DNA of 24,000 bases from Acidimicrobiia bacterium (GCA_041576165.1 JBFGLM010000001.1:103391-127390); one strand, 5' to 3'. Shown: positions 6,703 to 16,929, counted from the stretch's first letter. Notes: generated by a model from the letters alone, not told the origin. Numbers and translations: made by a program.

Positions 6703-8100
6703 GTGTTCCCGATGGGGTCAGGGGCTGTGATCGCCGACGCTGGAGGCATGCCAACTGTGACTGCATCAATCCGCCGGGCCCAGCGTCTCGCCGAGGCGAC
6801 TCCGGCTTCTCGCAACCGCTACGTCGACTTCCTTCGCGCCGTCTCCATCGTCGCCGTCGTCATCGGCCACTGGCTGATCGCAGCTCCTTACGCGGCCGGC
6901 GGCGAGCTGCGGGGCGTCAACATGCTGGCGCACACCCCGTGGACCCAGTGGCTGACGTGGATCTTCCAGGTCATGCCGGTGTTCTTCGCCGTCGGCGGCT
7001 ACGCCAACGCCGCATCATGGAACGCGTCCCGCCGCGCAGGCCACAGCTACGGCACGTGGCTCGCCGCCCGGCTGCGCCGGCTGACGATCCCCCTGCTGCC
7101 GCTGCTGGCCGTGTGGGCAGTGATCGGCATCGGTGGCGCCGCGTTGGGAATCGATGAGGATCTGATGCGCCTCGGGTCCCAGTCGGCCCTGATCCCCGTT
7201 TGGTTCCTGGCGGTCTACGTGGTCATCGTGGCAATGAGCCCGTGGCTGATCGAGGCCTGGGACCGGTACGCGTGGAGATCGTTCCTGGCCCCGGCCGGGG
7301 CGACGTTCATCGTCGACCGTGCGGTGGCGGGGGGATTGGAACTTCTCGGCTGGGTCAACTTCATCCTGGTGTGGTCGGCAATCCATCAGCTCGGGGTGGC
7401 GTGGCGACGCGGCGCGTTGCCCGCGGCCCCGGCGCGAATCGTGGCAGTGGGTTCGGCCCTCATCGCTGCGTTGTTGGTGACGATTGGCCCCTACCCGGTG
7501 GCGATGGTTGGGGTCCCCGGAGCAGAGGCCTCCAACAACGCTCCCCCCACGCTGGCGCTGATCGTCTTCGGCACCATGCAGATGGCCGCGCTGCTCGCAG
7601 TGGAGCCGGCCGCGCAGCGGATGCTGCAGCGCCCCGCCGCGTGGACGGGCACGATTCTGGTCAATGGGTGGATCATGACGTTGTACCTGTGGCATCTGAC
7701 CGCCATGGTGCTGGCAATCGGTGCCATGCTGCTCGTCGGTGGAATCGGATTGGGTATCGAGCCGTCCTCAGTCGGATGGTGGCTGACCCGACCGTTGTGG
7801 GTCGTCGGCCTGCTGGCGGTGACGCTTCCCTTCCTGGTCCTGTTCGGCCGCTTCGAACGACCCCGGCCGGCCCCGGAGGCGTCACCGCATCCGCTGGTGG
7901 CGCTCGGGGCGGTGGCCGCCGTGAGCGCCGGGCTCGGCCTGCTGGCGGCCCAAGGCGTGCAGGGATCGTTCTTCGGGGTCCGGCTCGAGGCGCTGGCGCT
8001 GCCAGCGGGGGCAGTGCTCGGATTGATCTGGGCCGGTCGGACGAGACGGGCATCCGAGGATGCGTCCACGTCCTCCGAGCGGGCGGCCGCCCACGGCTAA
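6703..8100 (+). CDS. Acyltransferase family 3 integral membrane protein (OafA/NolL-like)
   Basis: 465-aa ORF with roughly 10 hydrophobic helices. N-terminal family signature RNRYVDFLRAVSIVAVVIGHWL. The start is uncertain: GTG 6703, ATG 6712 or ATG 6748. Confidence 0.8.
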   Translation: MFPMGSGAVIADAGGMPTVTASIRRAQRLAEATPASRNRYVDFLRAVSIVAVVIGHWLIAAPYAAGGELRGVNMLAHTPWTQWLTWIFQVMPVFFAVGGYANAASWNASRRAGHSYGTWLAARLRRLTIPLLPLLAVWAVIGIGGAALGIDEDLMRLGSQSALIPVWFLAVYVVIVAMSPWLIEAWDRYAWRSFLAPAGATFIVDRAVAGGLELLGWVNFILVWSAIHQLGVAWRRGALPAAPARIVAVGSALIAALLVTIGPYPVAMVGVPGAEASNNAPPTLALIVFGTMQMAALLAVEPAAQRMLQRPAAWTGTILVNGWIMTLYLWHLTAMVLAIGAMLLVGGIGLGIEPSSVGWWLTRPLWVVGLLAVTLPFLVLFGRFERPRPAPEASPHPLVALGAVAAVSAGLGLLAAQGVQGSFFGVRLEALALPAGAVLGLIWAGRTRRASEDASTSSERAAAHG

Positions 8101-8822
8101 CCGGCCGAGTCGGTGAGCGCCACTCGGATTCGCCGGAAGCCCTTGCCTTTCGACTCGACCTTGGTGATGGCGACCCCTCCCACCTCAGCGGTCGTCTCGA
8201 CGTGGGTGCCACCGTCGGCCTGCCGGTCGAGGCCCACGATGTCGATCACCCGGACCTGGGTGAGCGTAGGCGGTAGCAGGTTCACCTTGGTTCGGATCAG
8301 GCTGGGATCTAGGTCGGCCTCCTCCCGGGGGAGGAACGACACCTCGACCGGGAGCTCCCGGGCGATCGCCTCGTTGAGCGCCTCCTCGAGCGGATCGCGG
8401 TCTTCCGGGTCCCAATCGGGTATCTCGAAATCGAGCCGGCCGTGGCCCGGCTCCATATTCCCGCCGGTCACCGGGCTCTGAAACCGCTCCCAGACGACGC
8501 CGCACAGGGCGTGGAGGCTGGTGTGGGTGCGCATCAGACGGTACCGCCGTTCCCAGTCGATCTCACCCCGCAGTGACGTGCCGGTGGCCGGCAGCGACCC
8601 TTCGACCCAGTGCCAGACGCCGTCCCGGTCCTGAGTGACTCGGGTCACGACCAGTTCGTCGTCCCCGATCCAGAGCGAACCGATGTCGTGCGGCTGGCCG
8701 CCTCCGCCGGGATAGAAGACCGTCCGGTCGAGCAGTATGCGGCCGTCGTCCACGTCGCTGCCCACCACGCTGGCATCCATCGTCGCCGCATAGGCGTCGG
8801 TCGAGTAGATCCGCTCAGTCAT
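8097..8822 (-). CDS. alaX: AlaX-type alanyl-tRNA editing protein (mis-acylated tRNA-Ala hydrolase)
   Basis: 241 aa. N-terminal TVFYPGGGGQPHD, the HxxxH zinc motif (RTHTSLHALCG) and the C-terminal DGGTHV motif typical of the AlaRS editing / threonyl-alanyl SAD domain. Confidence 0.85.
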   Translation of the reverse strand: MTERIYSTDAYAATMDASVVGSDVDDGRILLDRTVFYPGGGGQPHDIGSLWIGDDELVVTRVTQDRDGVWHWVEGSLPATGTSLRGEIDWERRYRLMRTHTSLHALCGVVWERFQSPVTGGNMEPGHGRLDFEIPDWDPEDRDPLEEALNEAIARELPVEVSFLPREEADLDPSLIRTKVNLLPPTLTQVRVIDIVGLDRQADGGTHVETTAEVGGVAITKVESKGKGFRRIRVALTDSAG

Positions 8823-8911: not shown

Positions 8912-10942
8912 ATGCATCCACCCCAACCCAAGAAGGTCCGGACCATCCGCTCGTTGCACGGTGAAGATTTCGTTGACGACTACAGCTGGTTGCGAGACCG
9001 CAACGACCCGGACACCATCGCATACCTCGCTGCCGAGAACGAGTACACAGAGAGGGCCACCGCTCACCTCGAGGATCTTCGCACCCAAATCTTCGCAGAG
9101 ATCAAGACCCGCACTCAGGAAACCGATCTGTCCGCCCCCGCCAAACGCGGCGAATACTGGTATGCCTCCCGCACCGAGGAGGGCAAGCAGTACCCAACGC
9201 ACGTGCGGATGCGGGCCGAACCAGACGGTCCCGAAGAAGTTCTGCTCGACGTCAACGCGCTGGCTGCCGACCACGAATACCTGCGGGTCGGGGTCTTCAG
9301 CGTCTCCCCCGACGGGCAGATGCTCGCCTACTCGACCGACACCGATGGCAGCGAGAAATATACGATGCGGATCAGAGACCTCGCCGGCGGCGCCGATCTG
9401 GACGATGTCCTGGAGAACACGTACTACAGCGCGGCGTGGTCCGCTGATGGCCGCCACCTCTTCTACACGACCATCGACGCCGCGCACCGGCCGGACAAGA
9501 TCTGGCGCCACGCCCTCGGCACCGCGCAGTCGGAAGACGAACTCGTGCTGCATGAGCCGGATGACCGCATGTTCATTCACGTGACGACGAGCCAGGACGA
9601 GCAATATGTGATCGCAGCCGCCGGCAGCCAGACGACGGCCGACGCCCGTTACATTCCCGCAGACCAACCAACGGCCGAGTGGCAATGGGTCCTCCCGCGG
9701 GAGCATGGCGTCGAATACCAGGCAGACCACAGAGAGGGGCGCTGGCTGGTGGTCACGAACGACGATGCGGTCAACGGCCGGCTTCTGTCCGTGTCGGTCG
9801 GCGACCCCGCCGACGTGATCGAGGTCATCCCGCACGACCCGGCCCGCAAGCTCAGCGGAGTAGTGGCCTTCTCCCAGCATGTCATCGTCTTCGGGCGCGG
9901 CGCCGGGCTCACCGCAGTCACAATCCTCGCCGACGGCACCGATCCCCACGACCTCGACTTCGATGAACCGGTGTACACGGTCGGCCCTGAACGCAACCTC
10001 GAGTACGACACAACAACCTTGCGGATCCACTACCAGTCGCTCGTGACGCCTCGCCGCATCATCGACGTGGACCTCACGACCGGCGAGCGGCGGGTCGTGA
10101 AGGAGACGCCCGTGCTCGGCGGTTTCCACTCGTCCGACTACACGTCGTCGCGTGACTGGGCGACGGCCGCCGACGGGACCCGGATCCCGATCTCCATCGT
10201 CCACCGCGCCGATCTGGACCGAACCCGGCCGGTTCCGGTATTGCTCTATGGCTACGGGTCGTACGAGATCCCGGTCGATCCCACCTTCTCGATCCCCCGC
10301 CTGTCGATCCTGGATCGGGGCGTCATGTTCGCGATCGCTCACATCCGGGGTGGAGGCGAGATGGGAAAGCCCTGGTACGAGTCCGGCAAGATGACCAACA
10401 AGGCGAACACCTTCGAGGACTTCATCGCTTGTGCCCGCCATCTGATCGACACCGGCGTCACCACACCTGAACTGCTGGTTGCGCGAGGCGGATCAGCCGG
10501 CGGCTTGCTGATCGGTGCCGTCGCCAACATGGCGCCGGAGCTGTTCAAGGCCTTGATGGCCCAGGTCCCGTTCGTCGACGTCGTCAACACCATGTTGGAC
10601 GAGACCCTGCCGCTGACGGTGATCGAGTGGGAGGAATGGGGCAACCCCAAGATCGAGGAGCAGTACCGGTGGATCCGGGAGTACTCGCCCTACGACAACG
10701 TGGATGGCCGCGAGTACCCTGCGATGCTCGTCACCGCCGGGCTCAACGACCCGCGGGTCAGCTACTGGGAACCCGCCAAATGGGTCGCCAAACTGCGTGA
10801 AGTCGGCACCACACGCGGACCGCTCCTCTTGAAGACCGAGATGGGAGCAGGCCATGCGGGACCCTCCGGCCGCTACGACGCTTGGAAGGACGAAGCGTTC
10901 GATCTGGCCTTCATGCTGGACCAGGTTGGGCTGGCGGGCTGA
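8912..10942 (+). CDS. ptrB: S9A-family serine peptidase, oligopeptidase B (protease II)
   Basis: 676 aa. N-terminal HGEDFVDDYSWLRDRNDP, then a beta-propeller region. The catalytic domain carries GGSAGGLL (Ser), GLNDPRV (Asp) and GAGHAG (His). Confidence 0.9.
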   Translation: MHPPQPKKVRTIRSLHGEDFVDDYSWLRDRNDPDTIAYLAAENEYTERATAHLEDLRTQIFAEIKTRTQETDLSAPAKRGEYWYASRTEEGKQYPTHVRMRAEPDGPEEVLLDVNALAADHEYLRVGVFSVSPDGQMLAYSTDTDGSEKYTMRIRDLAGGADLDDVLENTYYSAAWSADGRHLFYTTIDAAHRPDKIWRHALGTAQSEDELVLHEPDDRMFIHVTTSQDEQYVIAAAGSQTTADARYIPADQPTAEWQWVLPREHGVEYQADHREGRWLVVTNDDAVNGRLLSVSVGDPADVIEVIPHDPARKLSGVVAFSQHVIVFGRGAGLTAVTILADGTDPHDLDFDEPVYTVGPERNLEYDTTTLRIHYQSLVTPRRIIDVDLTTGERRVVKETPVLGGFHSSDYTSSRDWATAADGTRIPISIVHRADLDRTRPVPVLLYGYGSYEIPVDPTFSIPRLSILDRGVMFAIAHIRGGGEMGKPWYESGKMTNKANTFEDFIACARHLIDTGVTTPELLVARGGSAGGLLIGAVANMAPELFKALMAQVPFVDVVNTMLDETLPLTVIEWEEWGNPKIEEQYRWIREYSPYDNVDGREYPAMLVTAGLNDPRVSYWEPAKWVAKLREVGTTRGPLLLKTEMGAGHAGPSGRYDAWKDEAFDLAFMLDQVGLAG

Positions 10943-10967
10943 GCCGGCTCCCCCGGCCCCCGGCCGA

Positions 10968-12548
10968 TCAGCGAATGCCGACCGGCCGCCATCCTGGGTC
11001 GAATGTGGCCCCCCAGCTGTCGGACAAGCGTTGCTCTGCGAGCTGGCTCCAAGCCTGCAATGCACAGAACGGAGCACATTGCGGAGTGTCGCCGTTGCGG
11101 GTGCCCACGTGCACGCAACATTGCATCAGGCGCTCCTCGATCATGTTTGACATGTCCATGAACGGCTTGACCGTGAGCCGCACGATCCGCTCGGCCATCA
11201 GTGTTCGCAGCCGTTTGGCGCCGCCTCCCACCACCGCCCGACCGGCCATTCGCAACATGGCGGGTATTCCGAGGTCGCACGTGCGGCACACGATCTCGAA
11301 CAGGTCTCCGATCGTGGGGTGGGAGAGCGACTGTTGCTCCGACAGCAACCCGAGCAGGGAGACTCGGACCGAATCGCGCAGGTCGTTCATGATGTCGGAA
11401 GACGCGATGGTATTGGACACGAGTCCCAGGTGTTCGCGGAGGCGGTCATGGCCGATTGCGCGTACCAGCGACCGCCACGACCCATCGTCCTGTCTGATCA
11501 TGTAGCCGATAGAGCAGCAATGAGGGTGCGAGCAGGGCAGGGCGGTGAGGTCCTCCCACGTCACCACCCCGGCTGTCTGCGGTCCCAGCCGCCGCAACAC
11601 GCCGCCATGGGTCAGGCGATCGCGGCGATCAATCGGTCCTGAGCGTCCTGAACCAAACTGCGGCTGGATCGACACCCCGCCGACGAAGGGAGTGTCGAGG
11701 GCGAGGCTCACGACGGCGCCGATCTCGTCGTCGTTGACATCTTTTGCTGCCGTCATCGTGAGGGTCGTGAAGACACCGGCTTCGCTGAGCCGTGCTACCG
11801 CTCGCAGCTTCATTGCGCTGAGATCGGCACCCCGATGATGGCGGTACGTGGCCGAGCGGAGGCCGTCGAACTGGAGGTAGACCTCGACCCGGTCCCGTCG
11901 CGCTTCGAGCGCAGCGATCAATGAGTCGTCACGTGCCACCGCCACACCGTTGGTGTTGACCAGGATGCGGGTGATGGGACGAGCGGACAGCTCGTCGAGG
12001 ATGGAGACGAAATCGGGGTGGAGCGTCGGCTCGCCGCCCGAGAGCATCACCACATCGAGATGATCCCCCTCACGCCCGAGGCGCTGGTCCACGTTGGCCA
12101 GCACCTCGCCCGGCGGGACGACACCGCCGGCATGGGGAGCGGAACCGGCGAAACACGTGGGGCAGCGCAGGTTGCACTCACTGATGATGTCCTCGAGCAG
12201 GATGCAGGTGTGCTGGGTCTGCAGCTCGCCCAGACCCTGCCGGTAGGCCAGGGGGATCTGGTCGTAGTTGCCGGGCGTGTCGGGCACATGCAGTTTGGTA
12301 GGGGCGGTCCAGGTCTCCAGATATCTCAAGATCTGCGGATCCTCGTCGTAGAGGGTTTCCACCCGTCCGTGTTCACGACACCCCCGCACCAGCCATACGC
12401 GATCGTCGCGAACCGACAGGTAACCTGACAACCGCTCGACCAGCTCCAGCGGCCGGTCCGGCCACTGGTCGTGGCAATCGGGGCAAAACGCAACGACGTA
12501 GCGGTGGATGAAATCGCCTCGGAGCGGCATCCCTCGGGCCACCGTCAT
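10968..12548 (-). CDS. Multi-cluster radical SAM enzyme with an N-terminal Cys/His ribbon; COG1964/MJ0619 (Tes/GDGT-MAS)-like by recalled motif layout
   Basis: CNLRCPTC (CX3CX2C) is encoded at 12153-12176 and is preceded by QHTC. SGGEPT follows. N-terminal CPDC...GCREHG. C-terminal Cys groups LPCSHPHCCS, CRTC and KPFMD...QCCVH...CAPFC. Start set at ATG 12546-12548, which overlaps the upstream gene's TGA stop (ATGA). Confidence 0.85.
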   Translation of the reverse strand: MTVARGMPLRGDFIHRYVVAFCPDCHDQWPDRPLELVERLSGYLSVRDDRVWLVRGCREHGRVETLYDEDPQILRYLETWTAPTKLHVPDTPGNYDQIPLAYRQGLGELQTQHTCILLEDIISECNLRCPTCFAGSAPHAGGVVPPGEVLANVDQRLGREGDHLDVVMLSGGEPTLHPDFVSILDELSARPITRILVNTNGVAVARDDSLIAALEARRDRVEVYLQFDGLRSATYRHHRGADLSAMKLRAVARLSEAGVFTTLTMTAAKDVNDDEIGAVVSLALDTPFVGGVSIQPQFGSGRSGPIDRRDRLTHGGVLRRLGPQTAGVVTWEDLTALPCSHPHCCSIGYMIRQDDGSWRSLVRAIGHDRLREHLGLVSNTIASSDIMNDLRDSVRVSLLGLLSEQQSLSHPTIGDLFEIVCRTCDLGIPAMLRMAGRAVVGGGAKRLRTLMAERIVRLTVKPFMDMSNMIEERLMQCCVHVGTRNGDTPQCAPFCALQAWSQLAEQRLSDSWGATFDPGWRPVGIR

Positions 12549-12904
12549 GCTCCCGAGAGCGAGGCGACGATCAGCGCCACGCATGTGCCGATCAGCACCA
12601 GCAGCACCCCGAGGCCGAGGAAGAAGCCGGTGAGGAACCTGCCCTGGGCCCGGCGGTAACCCCAAATGGGAATCAGAACGAACAGCGCCAGCGTCACCAG
12701 CCCGCCCAGGGAGGCCGCGCCCCGGGTGGCGCCATCGCTGCCGGTGGCGTTGGCAAGACCGGCGAGGAGGCCGCTGATGAGTGCCCCCCCGAACACCGCA
12801 ACGAGGAACCCCAAAAACCCGGCCGTCTTCGGGTAGCGGGTTACGAAGGATCCGCCGCGGCCGTCGGGACGGCCGGGTCCCGCCGGTGGTGGCTGGTTGG
12901 TCAC
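12545..12904 (-). CDS. Hypothetical 119-aa membrane protein (Pro/Gly-rich N-terminus, three predicted TM helices), translationally coupled on both sides
   Basis: This is the C-terminal part of ORF 12545..13552. GTG 12902-12904 overlaps the TGA stop of the Lgt-like gene (GTGA). Its own TGA 12545-12547 overlaps the radical SAM ATG. Hydrophobic segments FLGFLVAVFGGALISGLLAGL, LGGLVTLALFVLIPIWGY and FLTGFFLGLGVLLVLIGTCVALIVASL. Confidence 0.6.
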   Translation of the reverse strand: MTNQPPPAGPGRPDGRGGSFVTRYPKTAGFLGFLVAVFGGALISGLLAGLANATGSDGATRGAASLGGLVTLALFVLIPIWGYRRAQGRFLTGFFLGLGVLLVLIGTCVALIVASLSGA

Positions 12905-13686
12905 GCGATCCCCGGGACAGCTCGGCCGCGGCGGATCAGGCGCCATGTGATCGATACAACCACCACTGCGAATCCGGTCAGGAGGAACAGCTGGGATCCA
13001 GACATGCCGAACCAGAGGGCCGGGTTGCCCCGGACGAATTCCAGCGCGAAGCGGGCGATGGCATAAGCGCCTACATACATGGGGAAGAGCCGTCCGGCGA
13101 AACGGGCGTCGTCCCGGACTCGCAACAGGAGCACCAGGGCCAGGACGTGGAACCCAATCTCGTAGAGAAACGAGGGATGCATCGGCAGCCCGAGCCGGCA
13201 CTGGGGGCAGAACGGCATCTGCATGGCCTGCTCCGCGCTCACGGCCAGCCCCCAAGGAAGAGAGGTCGTGGTCCCGATCTGCTCGGTGAGGAAACACCCG
13301 ATCCGGCCGATCGCCATACCGAGGGCCACCGCCGGAGCGAAGAAGTCGCCGGTCGAACCACGATATCCGATCAGCTTCTTCGCCACGATCGCCCCTACGT
13401 ACGCGCCGACCAGGCCACCGAGAATGGACCGGCCGGCATGGGTGAAGAGCCCGGTGACAGTCGGTTCGGTCCCTTCGGCCAGGTACCGAATGCCGGTGCC
13501 CACCCGGGCGAACAACCCGCCCCCGACCAGCGCACCGGCCACCACCGTCCATAGTTCATCGCTCCACCGGCCCCGCCGGCGGGCCTCTAGCACGAACACC
13601 ACACCCGCGGCGAGGACCCCGACCCCGATGAAGAACTCGTGGGTCGGGATGCTCAGCCCTCCCACCGTGAAGAGGACGGGGACCAT
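12901..13686 (-). CDS. Divergent Lgt-family (prolipoprotein diacylglyceryl transferase-like) integral membrane protein
   Basis: 261 aa and polytopic. Lgt-like blocks SILGGLVGAYVG, GMAIGRIGCFLTEQIG (compare E. coli GRLGNFINGELWG), HPSFLYEIG and YAIARFALEFVRGNP (the Y-x3-R-x3-E block is conserved). Confidence 0.8.
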   Translation of the reverse strand: MVPVLFTVGGLSIPTHEFFIGVGVLAAGVVFVLEARRRGRWSDELWTVVAGALVGGGLFARVGTGIRYLAEGTEPTVTGLFTHAGRSILGGLVGAYVGAIVAKKLIGYRGSTGDFFAPAVALGMAIGRIGCFLTEQIGTTTSLPWGLAVSAEQAMQMPFCPQCRLGLPMHPSFLYEIGFHVLALVLLLRVRDDARFAGRLFPMYVGAYAIARFALEFVRGNPALWFGMSGSQLFLLTGFAVVVVSITWRLIRRGRAVPGIA

Positions 13687-13745
13687 GGGTTCACGCTAGC
13701 TGCGAACACGCCGGCGCGACCGGCGAGACCCTCACGAAGTTGGCT

Positions 13746-14417
13746 TCAGTCGCGGGCAAGCAGCTGGTCTGCCACTGCGTCCAGGTCGGGCGCGACGATA
13801 TCGGGACGTTCGCTGACGGCGGTGAGATACATACCCGGGCGGGCGACGAACGCTCCCAACGCGCCGGCCCGCATTGCGCCGGTAACGTCCCAGTCGTGCG
13901 CGGCGATCATGCGCAGCTCGCCGATCGGCCGACCCAGCCGCTCGGCCACGGCTCGATACGTCGCAGGGGCGGGCTTGAAAGCTTCCACCATCTCGACGGA
14001 GAACGTCTCATCGAAGAGGTCGGCCAGGCCGGCGTTGGCCATCTGGTCAGCCACCATCGACCCGCTGGAGTTGGTGAGCGTGACCATCGCAAAGCCGGCG
14101 GATCGTATCCGTTCCAGGGCAGCCCGCACCTCCGGGTGCGGTGGCAGGGCGCGCATGCCGGCCACCACCTCCTGAGCAACTTCTTCGCCGAGTTCGATCC
14201 CGGCTCGTCGGGTAACCAGCAGCAACGCGTCGGTCCCCAGCTCGTCGAACGGCCGGTAGGCGCCAGTGAGGGTCGCAACGAGCGAGTTGCGGAGCATTTG
14301 CCCGAACCACACCGGCAACAGATCAACCGTCCCGACTGTTTTTTCAAAGGACGGGCGCAGCGCTCGGAGGTCGAGCAAGGTTTCGTTGACATCGAAGACA
14401 AGAGTTTCTCGGATCAT
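13746..14417 (-). CDS. Type II haloacid dehalogenase-like HAD hydrolase
   Basis: Start re-set to ATG 14417, with AAGGAG 7 nt upstream. HAD motifs FDVNETLLD (nucleophile Asp), VTLTNSS, AFKPAPATY and AAHDWDVTGA. 223 aa. Confidence 0.85.
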   Translation of the reverse strand: MIRETLVFDVNETLLDLRALRPSFEKTVGTVDLLPVWFGQMLRNSLVATLTGAYRPFDELGTDALLLVTRRAGIELGEEVAQEVVAGMRALPPHPEVRAALERIRSAGFAMVTLTNSSGSMVADQMANAGLADLFDETFSVEMVEAFKPAPATYRAVAERLGRPIGELRMIAAHDWDVTGAMRAGALGAFVARPGMYLTAVSERPDIVAPDLDAVADQLLARD

Positions 14418-14496
14418 CCGGGTTCTCCTTGCGGGTGGCTCCAGACGGTCGCTGGCCGCCCGGGCCACGATACGAGTAGCGTGCCGCCCACGAACC

Positions 14497-15234
14497 ATGC
14501 CCGATCTGAGCCTGTTTGTGAACGACCTGGGCGATCCCGTGCCCGCTCTGACCGCCGACGAAATGCGAGAAGTCGACCGCCTCGCCATCGAGGTACACGG
14601 GCCGAGTCTCCTTCAAATGATGGAGAACGCCGGCCGCAACCTCGCCCTGAGCGCACTCGAGCTGTTGGGCAATCGCTGGCGCGATGGGCAACTTCTCGTG
14701 CTGGCTGGGACCGGCGGCAATGGCGGCGGCGGGATCGCCGCCGCCCGGCACCTGGCCAATCGTGGGGCCGACGTGGCGATCGTCGTGACGAACATCGACG
14801 GACTCGAGGAGGTGCCGACGCTGCAGCTGGACATCTTCAGAGGCACCGACGGCCGCACGCTGGGAGGGTCCGAGCTCGCCTCCACCGAACCAGCGCTGGT
14901 GATCGACGCCATAATCGGGTATTCCCTGCGAGGATCTCCCCGAGGGGCCGCACTCGACATGATCGAATTCGTCAACGAAAGTTCGGCGCCGGTGGTGTCC
15001 CTCGACACGCCCTCCGGCCTGGATGTCACCTCCGGCACCTGTCCGGGCGCGGTCGTCACGGCCACCACGACGGTCACCCTCGCATTGCCCAAATGCGGTC
15101 TCACCGCGCCGCAGGCCGGCGACGTCGTATTGGCCGACATAGGGATCCCGCCGATCGTGTACAGGTCGCTCGGGCTGGAGTTCACATCGCCCGTTTTCGA
15201 CCACCGCTATCGAGTCCCGCTGGGCCGCGCATGA
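14497..15234 (+). CDS. nnrE: Stand-alone NAD(P)H-hydrate epimerase (YjeF N-terminal domain only)
   Basis: Start re-set to ATG 14497; the upstream part of ORF 14266.. overlaps the HAD gene. Motifs LVLAGTGGNGGGGIAAARHL, DAIIGYSLRG and SLDTPSGLD. The TGA stop overlaps the nadK ATG (ATGA at 15231-15234). Confidence 0.85.
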   Translation: MPDLSLFVNDLGDPVPALTADEMREVDRLAIEVHGPSLLQMMENAGRNLALSALELLGNRWRDGQLLVLAGTGGNGGGGIAAARHLANRGADVAIVVTNIDGLEEVPTLQLDIFRGTDGRTLGGSELASTEPALVIDAIIGYSLRGSPRGAALDMIEFVNESSAPVVSLDTPSGLDVTSGTCPGAVVTATTTVTLALPKCGLTAPQAGDVVLADIGIPPIVYRSLGLEFTSPVFDHRYRVPLGRA

Positions 15235-15995
15235 CGCCAGCACCCCGCCTCGCCCTCGTCGCCTCACTGGCCCCGGAGGCCCAGCAGGCGGCGGAGCGCC
15301 TGTGCGCGACGTACACATTCGTCGACCGTGACGAAGCGGACGTGATCGTGGCACTCGGCGGAGACGGTTTGATGTTGCGTACCTTGCATTCGACCGTTGA
15401 TCGGCCAGTCCCGGTCTATGGCATGAACCGCGGCTCATTGGGCTGGCTGATGAACCGGTACCGGCCCGATGATTTGATCGAACGGGTGGCTCGGGCCGCG
15501 CCGGTCGTCCTGCATCCGCTCGAGATGGAAGCTGACACCGAGTCCGGCCAGACCCTCCGTGCCTATGCCTTCAATGAGGTGTCGCTCTATCGCCAGACCC
15601 ATCAAAGCGCCAAGCTCTCGATCAAGATCGACGGTGTGGAGCGACTGCCGGAGTTGATGGCCGACGGCCTGGTCGTGTCGACGCCGGCCGGGAGCACCGC
15701 CTACAACCTCTCGGCCGGCGGTCCGATCGTCCCGCTCCAGGCGAATGTGCTCGCGGTCACTCCACTCAGTCCGTTCCGTCCGAGCCGCTGGCCCGGTGCG
15801 TTGATCCGGGACAGCGCCGCCGTGACGGTCGACATTCTGGAAGTCCAGAAACGACCGGTAGGAGCGGTGGCCGATTCAACCGAAGTGCGAAATGTGAGCT
15901 CAGTCCGGATTCGCAAATCCTCCCAGACCGCCCGGCTGCTGTTCGACTCGGAGGATTCACTCGATGACCGGGTGATGGGTCTGCAATTTGGATGA
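15231..15995 (+). CDS. nadK: NAD kinase (short ~254-aa form)
   Basis: Last 254 aa of the 751-aa ORF 13740..15995. Motifs VIVALGGDGLML, NEVSL and DGLVVSTPAGSTAYNLSAGGPIV. Confidence 0.9.
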   Translation: MTPAPRLALVASLAPEAQQAAERLCATYTFVDRDEADVIVALGGDGLMLRTLHSTVDRPVPVYGMNRGSLGWLMNRYRPDDLIERVARAAPVVLHPLEMEADTESGQTLRAYAFNEVSLYRQTHQSAKLSIKIDGVERLPELMADGLVVSTPAGSTAYNLSAGGPIVPLQANVLAVTPLSPFRPSRWPGALIRDSAAVTVDILEVQKRPVGAVADSTEVRNVSSVRIRKSSQTARLLFDSEDSLDDRVMGLQFG

Positions 15996-16047: not shown

Positions 16048-16929
16048 TCAGAACTCAACGGTCAGTTCGATCATCTCGTTGGCGCGCAAGATGACCGCCG
16101 GCACCCTGGCGCCCTCCTCTATCGTTTCCAACACTGCGTAAAGGTCATCCGCGGTGCTCAACTCGGCCCCGGCGACCGACACCAGCAGATCGCCCTCCCG
16201 AATGCCCACTTGGCCTGCGGGGCTATCGTCCTCGACCACCCGAACCAGCAGGCCGTCGGCTTCCTCCAGCCCGACCGCCCGACGCATCTTGCGGGCGACC
16301 TCGTTGGGCGCAACTCCCACCCCCAGCCTCACCCGGCTTGCGGCTTGACCCGTCCGCAGCCGCGAGATCGTCTGGTCGAGCGTGGGGCCGGCTGGGATCG
16401 CCAGGTAAAAGCCCTCGCCGAGCCGGTTGGTGTTGATCCCGAGCAAGCGACCGTTGCGGTCGACCACCGGCCCACCCGACGACCCGGGGAGGAGCGGCGC
16501 CGTGTGTTCGAGGCTTCCTCGGATCTTGCGGCCCCGCGGACCGCGGAACTCGCGCTGGGTGCCGGATATGTACCCGATGGTCACCCGGAGCCCCTCCCCG
16601 CCCGGATTACTGAGGCCCAAGACCGGCAGACCGATATCGGGCGTTTCGCCGGCCTCGCGTGAGATCGGCACCATCTCGCCGGTGTCTGCCTCGATGATGG
16701 CCAGGTCGGATTCGTAATCAGCCGCGACGACGGTGCCCTCCGCCCGCCGTCCGTCACCAAAACTCACTCCGACCCCCTCACGGCGGACGTTGTGGGCATT
16801 GGTGAGCACGATGCCCGGCTCGATCACGATGCCCGAACCCCGGGGCCCGCGGCGGCCGATCCCTACGACCGATGGACCCACCTGATCGGCGATTTCGCTG
16901 ATCGCTTGCTGCATTTCTTCCAAGAGCAC
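16048..16929 (-). CDS. S1C (HtrA/DegP-like) trypsin-fold serine protease with one C-terminal PDZ domain; no signal peptide or membrane anchor
   Basis: 293 aa. GTG start with AAGGA 6 nt upstream. Triad contexts LTNAHNV (His), SDLAIIEA (Asp) and GSSGGPVV (Ser). The PDZ-like tail contains GIREGDLLVSVAG. The ORF cannot extend further upstream. Confidence 0.85.
   Translation of the reverse strand: MLLEEMQQAISEIADQVGPSVVGIGRRGPRGSGIVIEPGIVLTNAHNVRREGVGVSFGDGRRAEGTVVAADYESDLAIIEADTGEMVPISREAGETPDIGLPVLGLSNPGGEGLRVTIGYISGTQREFRGPRGRKIRGSLEHTAPLLPGSSGGPVVDRNGRLLGINTNRLGEGFYLAIPAGPTLDQTISRLRTGQAASRVRLGVGVAPNEVARKMRRAVGLEEADGLLVRVVEDDSPAGQVGIREGDLLVSVAGAELSTADDLYAVLETIEEGARVPAVILRANEMIELTVEF

Follow-up and report, generated by a model that had tools for sequence, protein, structure and literature searches.

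A substituted Lgt paralogue, a small cysteine-bearing membrane protein and a Tes-like radical SAM enzyme form a conserved gene triad in Actinomycetota and Bacteroidota: a candidate lipid or lipid-protein modification system

What might a homologue of the prolipoprotein diacylglyceryl transferase Lgt, a small membrane protein and an enzyme of the radical S-adenosylmethionine (SAM) superfamily be doing together when their genes overlap? This question is raised by a stretch of 24,000 nucleotides from an Acidimicrobiia bacterium (GCA_041576165.1 JBFGLM010000001.1:103391-127390; hereafter the window), whose 65% GC DNA carries on its minus strand four open reading frames encoding a HAD hydrolase, an Lgt-like protein, a small membrane protein and the radical SAM enzyme (Table 1), all of them with a coding-type GC content at third codon positions of 0.78-0.83. 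An original prediction, made from this DNA, had proposed that the last three, possibly headed by the HAD gene, constitute an uncharacterised system that modifies membrane lipids. As described below, the three genes are inherited together in Actinomycetota and Bacteroidota, with translational coupling in nearly every case, and they probably make an undescribed lipid or lipid-protein modification. Each part of the triad belongs to a known superfamily, and the chance that they yield a modification of a new type is substantial.

The arrangement originally described, with four minus-strand genes, the GTGA and ATGA overlaps linking the last three and a gap of 59 nt between the HAD stop TGA (13748-13746) and the Lgt ATG, matches the sequence in all its coordinates and junctions. 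A single overlap of 4 nt is commonplace in high-GC operons, and the element that goes beyond chance is the conservation of the junctions, not the overlap alone. With the codon aligned to Met7 of the window radical SAM protein as reference, the upstream stop in 136 related loci precedes it by a median distance of 8 nt, and is within 20 nt of it in 103 of them, so that coupling is a property of the family and not a peculiarity of the window. An alternative start for the small protein, an in-frame ATG at 12946, would give a product of 133 aa (MAPDPPRPSCPGDR...) and an overlap of 46 nt with the Lgt gene. Automatic gene calls on the loci L001 and L002 chose this longer form, which is plausible given the Pro-rich N-termini of the small-protein family. 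The short form from GTG is nevertheless favoured, since the corresponding gene of an 80%-identical relative encodes 117 aa and begins past the Lgt stop, and with either start the tight coupling of the three genes stands. A promoter and terminator scan of positions 10700-14800 revealed no sigma-70-like sites and no terminator-like sites above the level of shuffled sequence, a result that is uninformative in a high-GC actinobacterium.

The original prediction had made its case depend on conservation of the trio, which is found from both sides and over a wider range than was then supposed. A genome scan with one genome per species confirmed an orthologue of the radical SAM gene in at least 577 species genomes. 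Orthologous proteins of Nonomuraea, Nocardia, Mycobacterium/Mycolicibacterium, Microbispora, Acidimicrobiia, Nanopelagicales and others are 62-80% identical; in a library clustered at 50% identity they form essentially one cluster. Eighty loci were fetched for neighbourhood tests, and in all those with sufficient upstream sequence tblastn detected an Lgt paralogue (44-63% identical) directly upstream on the same strand. The one exception, L077, comes from Herpetosiphonaceae, and its contig, which has no more than 884 nt on that side, ends before any Lgt becomes visible. In the reverse direction, a search with the Lgt paralogue gave 80 metagenome loci, and the radical SAM gene lies downstream in 53 of the 57 that extend at least 1 kb on that side. 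On the other hand, the suggestion that the HAD gene comes first in the operon had to be abandoned. The HAD protein reaches the TIGR01428 equivalog (167.4 bits against 125.4), and its gene adjoins the module in L086 and L166, close relatives of the window, but by tblastn in no other genome or metagenome locus tested; it is therefore a lineage-specific neighbour outside the core module.

The association also recurs in a second phylum. Plasmid records, searched at the protein level, yielded the actinobacterial module from a plasmid of M. avium and from replicons of M. branderi and Nonomuraea gerenzanensis, together with a 32%-identical radical SAM protein in two Cytophagales, Chondrinema and Persicobacter, where an Lgt-family gene overlaps the start of the radical SAM gene and a protein of 59-64 aa with two transmembrane helices follows. 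In all five Bacteroidota loci examined, Lgt carries Y26H, H103M and N146C (GRIGCF; E. coli numbering) and the small protein has the tail G-x-G-[IV]-C-G. Homologues of the Bacteroidota Lgt that are 65-74% identical occur in Fulvivirga, Tenacibaculum, Terrimonas, Allomuricauda and Chryseolinea, and the three chromosomal contexts examined comprise LGT, an overlapping radical SAM gene and a protein of 61-65 aa, amid housekeeping genes. The radical SAM protein of this phylum keeps an N-terminal cluster motif, CPYDCGLCP, and scores 341 bits with the TrsS profile NF045646, below the cut-off of 490. From this recurrence, the conserved unit can be defined as a triad made of a His/Cys-substituted Lgt paralogue, a radical SAM enzyme of Tes architecture and a small membrane protein whose C-terminal part contains G-x-C. 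No Lgt gene adjoins a more distantly related Tes-like paralogue, taken as a negative control, on a plasmid of Mycolicibacterium vanbaalenii. This paralogue (L171, 1239-6279) is 28% identical to the window protein, lies among genes for a methyltransferase, a second radical SAM protein, CcdA and a protein disulfide oxidoreductase, and seems to represent a further uncharacterised system within this superfamily.

If the triad is the unit, the next issue is what its Lgt member can still do. The window protein matches Pfam LGT (PF01790) over residues 3-247 with 115.2 bits against a gathering cut-off of 24.9, but it falls short of the TIGR00544 equivalog (73.5 bits against 118.9) and stays far under the cut-offs of every other NCBIfam Lgt equivalog. 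Work with E. coli Lgt has identified Y26, H103, R143, N146, G154 and R239 as essential. In that enzyme Tyr26 is hydrogen-bonded to the sn-2 ester of phosphatidylglycerol (PG), HGGL is the proposed site of the lipobox peptide and N146 takes part in a buried hydrogen-bond network beside R143. In an alignment of 78 paralogues with E. coli Lgt (residue counts are over 76 of them), the residues of the PG/diacylglycerol (DAG) pocket, G104, G142, R143, G145, E151, G154, Y235, R239, E243 and R246, are unchanged in 76/76, and H196-P-S, Y201 and E202 are likewise conserved in every aligned paralogue. By contrast, the essential positions Y26, H103 and N146 are replaced by His (76/76), Leu (75/76) and Cys (76/76), respectively. 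The lipid-donor pocket has thus been retained, whereas the acceptor and catalytic positions have been rewritten in a way that creates a potential Cys/His pair. The motif GR.GC is present in 80 of 80 metagenome paralogues, and likewise in Bacteroidota; CPxC is detected in 74 of the 80 and is absent from the Bacteroidota version. The description 'Lgt-like' in the original prediction therefore stands for the fold, but with three essential residues changed and a sub-equivalog score the window protein is not an ordinary Lgt.

Public annotation nonetheless calls these paralogues (P0271-P0510) 'prolipoprotein diacylglyceryl transferase'. Taken at its word, the RefSeq label would imply an ordinary and redundant lipoprotein diacylglyceryl transferase lying by chance beside an unrelated radical SAM gene, a view to which the Pfam LGT fold lends itself, as does the lipoprotein labelling that persists in an MSMEG_3222 mutant of M. 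smegmatis and that was attributed to the second homologue. We regard it as very improbable in the face of invariant substitutions at three E. coli-essential positions, a score under the equivalog cut-off, and a near-universal linkage to the radical SAM and small-protein genes that is seen in both search directions and in two phyla. The two paralogues that were scored (window and Chondrinema) both miss the equivalog cut-offs and all those examined carry substitutions at E. coli-essential residues, and the label is probably a systematic over-annotation.

For the radical SAM partner, the domain matches comprise Zn_ribbon_HMPTM (PF23545, 34.8 bits against 27) and Radical_SAM (PF04055). The name of the first domain is uninformative on function, because MJ0619, the founding protein of the HMPT name, has been re-assigned to GDGT-MAS and its methylase activity was not reproducible. 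An annotation as HMPT dimethyltransferase is carried by some of the homologues. Among all PDB sequences, the sole real radical SAM relative is GDGT-MAS itself (PDB 7TOL, E 3.7e-30). In this line, an AlphaFold (AF2) model built from 49 orthologues (pLDDT 76, pTM 0.83) matched 7TOM in Foldseek with E 3e-22 and TM-scores of 0.66/0.69 over the full length, while any other radical SAM structure reached at most 0.33, so the predicted fold is that of GDGT-MAS. The best curated NCBIfam matches are TrsS (198.7 bits against the cut-off of 490, over profile positions 12-334 of 441 only) and Tes (NF045702, 150.9 bits, cut-off 450), and none of the nearest relatives attains the Tes or the TrsS cut-off. Matches to MoaA, MftC, NirJ and sactipeptide maturases are restricted to the generic radical SAM core, and no SPASM/twitch match was found past that core, since MftC, AlbA, StsB, ScmE/F and similar profiles cover residues ~120-285 with no more than 45 bits. 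An identity as a SPASM maturase, or as a maturase of peptides made by the ribosome and modified after translation (RiPPs), was ruled out on this domain coverage. As originally expected, the profile search places the protein outside characterised non-lipid families such as MoaA, PqqE and the sulfatase maturases. A further candidate, anti-phage defence, was rejected after PADLOC, run on the four proteins, returned only a generic 28-bit match of the radical SAM core to pVip.

The proposed resemblance to the archaeal enzymes that couple lipid tails is thus borne out by the only solved relative and by the modelled fold, but it does not extend to membership of Tes. The window positions aligned with C73, C77 and C80, the ligands of the N-terminal auxiliary [4Fe-4S] cluster of Tes, are not Cys. 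Moreover, the labile Met439 and Tyr459 of the C-terminal cluster of Tes, two residues without variation among 1000 archaeal homologues and with a central part in the sulfur-carbon intermediate, align with Lys461 and Val481, both invariant in the window family. Invariant cysteines have also been gained, at C115, C339, C344, C424 and C491. Two auxiliary clusters are possible on this pattern, and the eight extra invariant cysteines make a multi-cluster enzyme, another element of the original prediction, plausible.

The small protein, in turn, has no Pfam or NCBIfam match, and tblastn and phmmer searches with the 119-aa protein of the window returned one relative only. Its family was recovered by requiring an open reading frame that abuts the radical SAM or Lgt gene and contains hydrophobic segments, followed by alignment, and in this way a single family emerged in 72 loci. 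Its members display a Pro-rich N-terminus of variable length, three transmembrane helices and a positively charged loop ahead of the third (TM3), which is Gly-rich and closes in G-x-C (typically ...GLGLGLMIGWAL...AGFCTGLNPxLY; LIGTCVAL in the window). The G-x-C is present in 70 of the 72 aligned proteins, and the loci of both exceptions hold a second paralogous copy with the Cys. According to the positive-inside rule, this residue is predicted to sit at the outer-leaflet end of an inside-to-outside helix, and the active site of Lgt occupies that face of the membrane too. The gene lies between those of Lgt and the radical SAM enzyme in the window, Nocardia, Mycobacterium and Acidimicrobiia, and just upstream of Lgt in Nonomuraea. 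The original prediction overlooked the invariant Cys of this protein, as well as an accessory gene common in Actinomycetota (see below) and the occurrence in Bacteroidota.

A cysteine in such a position could also be taken as a sign of chemistry that does not involve lipids, with the radical SAM enzyme maturing the small protein in a RiPP-like manner or building a thiol or metal centre, and the Lgt fold providing a scaffold or, on the outer face, a thiol/disulfide partner. Cysteines do amass on that face (C131 and CPxC of Lgt, the small-protein Cys and two more in the accessory protein), some loci hold tandem small-protein copies whose Pro-rich N-termini vary, a frequent feature of precursor peptides, and a ZIP-like gene, though below the Pfam cut-off, precedes the module in mycobacterial loci. 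We consider this explanation distinctly unlikely. The enzyme has no SPASM/twitch signature and resembles RiPP maturases only in its generic core, the conserved Cys is predicted outside the cytoplasm and hence beyond its reach, the strict retention of the PG/DAG-binding arginines suggests that the Lgt paralogue is more than a scaffold, and CPxC is absent from Bacteroidota.

We therefore prefer, tentatively and without calling it probable, a reading in which the Lgt paralogue, the small Cys protein and the radical SAM enzyme form one membrane-associated enzyme system acting on a diacylglycerol-based lipid. The Lgt paralogue would bind a PG-type lipid and move its diacylglyceryl unit onto a thiol. 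The acceptor would be the invariant Cys of the cognate small protein, which is found in a lipobox-like setting (small residues and then Cys, at the outer end of a helix), and the transfer might proceed through the paralogue's own Cys131 or the new Cys/His pair. From the cytoplasm, the radical SAM enzyme would abstract a hydrogen from an unactivated carbon of the hydrocarbon tail of that lipid and then form a new C-C or C-S bond, by which the tail would be cross-linked, cyclised or tethered. Such chemistry would yield a tailored diacylglyceryl lipid, borne most likely by the small protein as a thioether. A sharper and more doubtful version of the proposal is that the triad installs a new modification, in which the Cys of a C-terminal 'reverse lipobox' in the small protein is S-diacylglycerylated by the Cys/His Lgt paralogue and the radical SAM enzyme then cross-links or cyclises the acyl tails or makes them span the bilayer.

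Several issues weigh against such a scheme, in which the lipid function is inferred. The reaction may not be a tail-to-tail coupling, given that the actinobacterial radical SAM family is devoid of the Tes N-terminal cluster cysteines, and the alignment indicates that the catalytic residues of Tes, Met439 and Tyr459 included, are missing as well. Radical SAM enzymes have to work in the cytoplasm, and with the Lgt site facing outward the membrane would separate the two catalytic sites, which leaves the hand-over of the substrate unexplained. In addition, M. smegmatis survives without either of its Lgt homologues, and no phenotype has been reported for the second one, MSMEG_5408. The glycine-zipper-like TM3 suits a structural subunit no less than a substrate. 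Finally, although the lipids of Nocardia and Mycobacterium have been intensively studied, we know of no report of tail-coupled diacyl lipids or of lipoproteins of this kind in them.

Part of this evidence would be accommodated by a complex that remodels free lipids, close to the 'tail-coupling' idea of the original prediction and involving no protein lipidation. The radical SAM enzyme would then couple or cyclise phospholipid acyl tails to give macrocyclic or membrane-spanning diacyl lipids, while the role of the Lgt paralogue is confined to lipid binding and presentation, or to head-group exchange, and the small protein acts as a structural or anchoring subunit. The full Tes architecture of the enzyme, the intact PG/DAG pocket, a Gly-rich TM3 typical of helix packing and a stoichiometric translational coupling that suits a complex are all in its favour. 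This alternative is still somewhat unlikely, as the Met439, Tyr459 and N-cluster ligands specific to Tes are gone from the enzyme, and the conservation over two phyla of a single Cys in the small protein and of a new active-site Cys in Lgt would be left unexplained. To our knowledge, no such lipids have been described from Nocardia, Mycobacterium or Flavobacteriia.

Table 1. Genes of the window locus and the sites discussed in the text (E. coli numbering where indicated)
Feature	Coordinates	Strand	Remarks
Type II HAD hydrolase	14417..13746	-	223 aa; ATG with AAGGAGA in front; TIGR01428, 167 bits
Lgt-fold integral membrane protein	13686..12901	-	261 aa; distinct paralogue subfamily H26/L103/C146 (E. 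coli numbering); PF01790
His16 codon, position of E. coli Lgt Tyr26	13639..13641	-	His in 76/76 aligned paralogues
LGGL in place of HGGL (His103 to Leu)	13411..13422	-	Leu in 75/76 paralogues; Met in Bacteroidota
GRIGCF, Lgt signature	13291..13308	-	Arg143 kept, Asn146 to Cys131; Arg 76/76, Cys 76/76
CPQC, extracytoplasmic head-domain loop	13198..13209	-	C160 and C163 nearly invariant in alignment A2
YAIARFALEFVR	13030..13065	-	Tyr235/Arg239/Glu243/Arg246 network of the diacylglycerol pocket, kept; all four in 76/76
GTGA overlap, Lgt paralogue stop/small-protein start	12901..12904	-	Lgt TGA 12903-12901, GTG 12904-12902; read from sequence
Small membrane protein with three transmembrane helices	12904..12545	-	119 aa from GTG; Pro-rich N-terminus; family from position and alignment
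Cys108 of the small protein (LIGTCVAL)	12581..12583	-	12 residues from the C-terminus, outer end of TM3
ATGA overlap, small-protein stop/radical SAM start	12545..12548	-	TGA 12547-12545, ATG 12548-12546; read from sequence
Soluble radical SAM enzyme, GDGT-MAS/Tes architecture	12548..10968	-	526 aa; PF23545 and PF04055
Rubredoxin-like N-terminal domain, C22-x2-C25...C57-x2-H60	12369..12485	-	Four residues invariant; matches C9x2C12x20C33x2H36 of GDGT-MAS
CNLRCPTC, CX3CX2C cluster motif	12153..12176	-	C125, C129 and C132 invariant
C-terminal CCVH...QCAPFC (C477, C478, C491, C495)	11064..11120	-	Invariant; aligns with CCIH...PFC of GDGT-MAS

Around the triad, most loci of Actinomycetota hold an accessory gene for a protein of 80-105 aa with two transmembrane helices (..DPLRLC..W..GP...GYW.A.RAGL.RS.C.LRD.RLV..Y..), which overlaps or follows the radical SAM stop. 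Of the metagenome loci that are informative on this point, 31 of 36 have it, as do ~73 loci from genomes. It is not detectable in the 24 kb of the window, where only chance-level matches occur. In the window, L166 and L167 its place is taken by a convergent peptidase S9 gene, or by an alcohol dehydrogenase gene and then S9, and in the window the peptidase gene begins 25 nt past the radical SAM stop (gap 10943-10967). Farther out (14488-15995 on the plus strand, 16048-16929 on the minus strand, and 6703-8822), the surroundings are of a housekeeping kind and syntenic with L166, with a YjeF_N (NAD(P)HX epimerase-like) gene and then an NAD kinase gene, and also a trypsin-PDZ (HtrA-like) protease, an AlaX-like tRNA-editing protein and an Acyl_transf_3 membrane acyltransferase.

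Other loci present their own variations. Tandem paralogous copies of the small three-transmembrane protein are common in Nocardia and Nonomuraea (L003, 7123-8004; L004, 6252-7271; L014, 4436-5271), with the conserved C-terminal region in both copies and divergent N-termini. L145 (45-2696), one of the four metagenome loci in which the Lgt paralogue lacks a downstream radical SAM gene, continues with two tandem small-protein paralogues, one with the Cys and the other with His instead, and then with a convergent gene for an AurF-like di-iron oxygenase. In several mycobacterial loci, a gene for a 234-aa protein with seven transmembrane helices stands directly upstream of the Lgt paralogue (L042, 4100-4804; L046, 4013-4717; L064, 3989-4693), its match to the ZIP zinc transporters being weak (23 bits, under the cut-off of 35). 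The Herpetosiphonaceae metagenome-assembled genome (L077, 227-2742) holds the small G-x-C protein, a 63%-identical radical SAM protein and the two-transmembrane gene, and is the only non-actinobacterial match among the 80 loci of the genome scan; its high identity suggests a recent transfer from Actinomycetota or a binning error. The M. avium copy mentioned above (L169, 2225-5545: Lgt paralogue, two small genes, radical SAM) resides on pS2b, a 344-kb mobilizable linear plasmid of a clinical isolate of subsp. hominissuis, next to a RES/Xre toxin-antitoxin pair and an IS110 transposase, from which it follows that the module is capable of horizontal travel.

The original prediction knew of no characterised pathway that pairs an Lgt homologue with such an enzyme, and we found no paper on this pairing. 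Full-text searches on Lgt with radical SAM, actinobacterial Tes homologues, COG1964 and Lgt paralogues retrieved no description of an association between Lgt and a Tes-like radical SAM enzyme, the defining TrsS paper lying outside their coverage. Surveys of bacterial Tes homologues have used a threshold of E below 1e-50 and dealt with Acidobacteria, Chloroflexota and Planctomycetota, and the present family would not pass such a threshold. Should the sharper version of the proposal be true, a bacterial counterpart of archaeal tail-coupling would exist in hundreds of Actinomycetota species, mycobacteria and Nocardia among them, and in at least five genera of Bacteroidota, including Tenacibaculum. 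Radical lipid chemistry of the Tes type, experimentally known from archaea only, would then reach aerobic bacteria with ester-linked lipids, and the mycobacterial 'second Lgt' of the MSMEG_5408 type, labelled as an ordinary transferase despite three changed essential residues, would gain a context and a testable function. In this regard, palaeoclimate proxies that infer the sources of membrane-spanning lipids from bacterial Tes homologues need care, since the family described here is Lgt-linked and without the catalytic residues of Tes. A module of three genes that is widespread, and present in genera with genetically tractable species (Mycolicibacterium, Nocardia, Tenacibaculum), makes the hypothesis directly testable.

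How does the triad compare with known systems? With E. coli Lgt (PDB 5AZB/5AZC), the paralogue shares the LGT fold, the PG/DAG pocket and its hydrogen-bond network, including HPS.YE. It differs in Y26H, H103L/M and N146C, in an extra head-domain CPxC confined to Actinomycetota and in its score under the equivalog cut-off, and it is genetically tied to a radical SAM enzyme and a dedicated small Cys protein, and would not serve the general lipoprotein pool. The second Lgt homologue of M. smegmatis, MSMEG_5408, is reported to carry Y26H and N146C and has been described as having 'presumed low Lgt activity' (bioRxiv 10.1101/2025.03.27.645668). The paralogue family therefore already had a known member, without an assigned function or a noted partner; it holds two of the three signature changes, and on this signature it may belong to the module. 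MSMEG_5406, two locus-tag numbers away, reportedly falls 9-fold on zinc chelation (PMC7174638) and is a possible member of this operon.

Regarding the radical SAM enzyme, TrsS is the best-scoring curated family for both the window and the Bacteroidota proteins, each of them below the cut-off. This family, reportedly defined by Haft and Tolstoy in 2025, is labelled as a radical SAM (seleno)protein, unlike the window protein, which shows no selenocysteine; a stated function for TrsS was not found. Mss of Thermotoga and Thermoanaerobacter, a bacterial radical SAM enzyme that couples fatty-acyl tails, is comparable by its description only: it occurs in species without a Tes homologue, has been detected in anaerobes only and is presented with no mention of an Lgt partner (PMC13159169). 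The closest likeness is with GDGT-MAS/Tes (M. jannaschii MJ0619, 7TOL/7TOM), a lipid-binding enzyme that purifies with E. coli phospholipid. Despite an identity of only ~20-28%, both share a four-domain architecture with a rubredoxin-like Cx2C...Cx2H, a CX3CX2C core, a C-terminal CC.H...PFC and a helical C-terminal domain, which in Tes forms the lipid pocket. What sets the window protein apart is the loss of C73/C77/C80, a Lys for Met439 and a Val for Tyr459, and new invariant cysteines. On sequence grounds it is a Tes-like enzyme and not a member of the Tes family, and it belongs to a bacterial lineage of aerobic hosts with diacyl lipids, where it is paired with an Lgt paralogue in a way that we have not found described for Tes.

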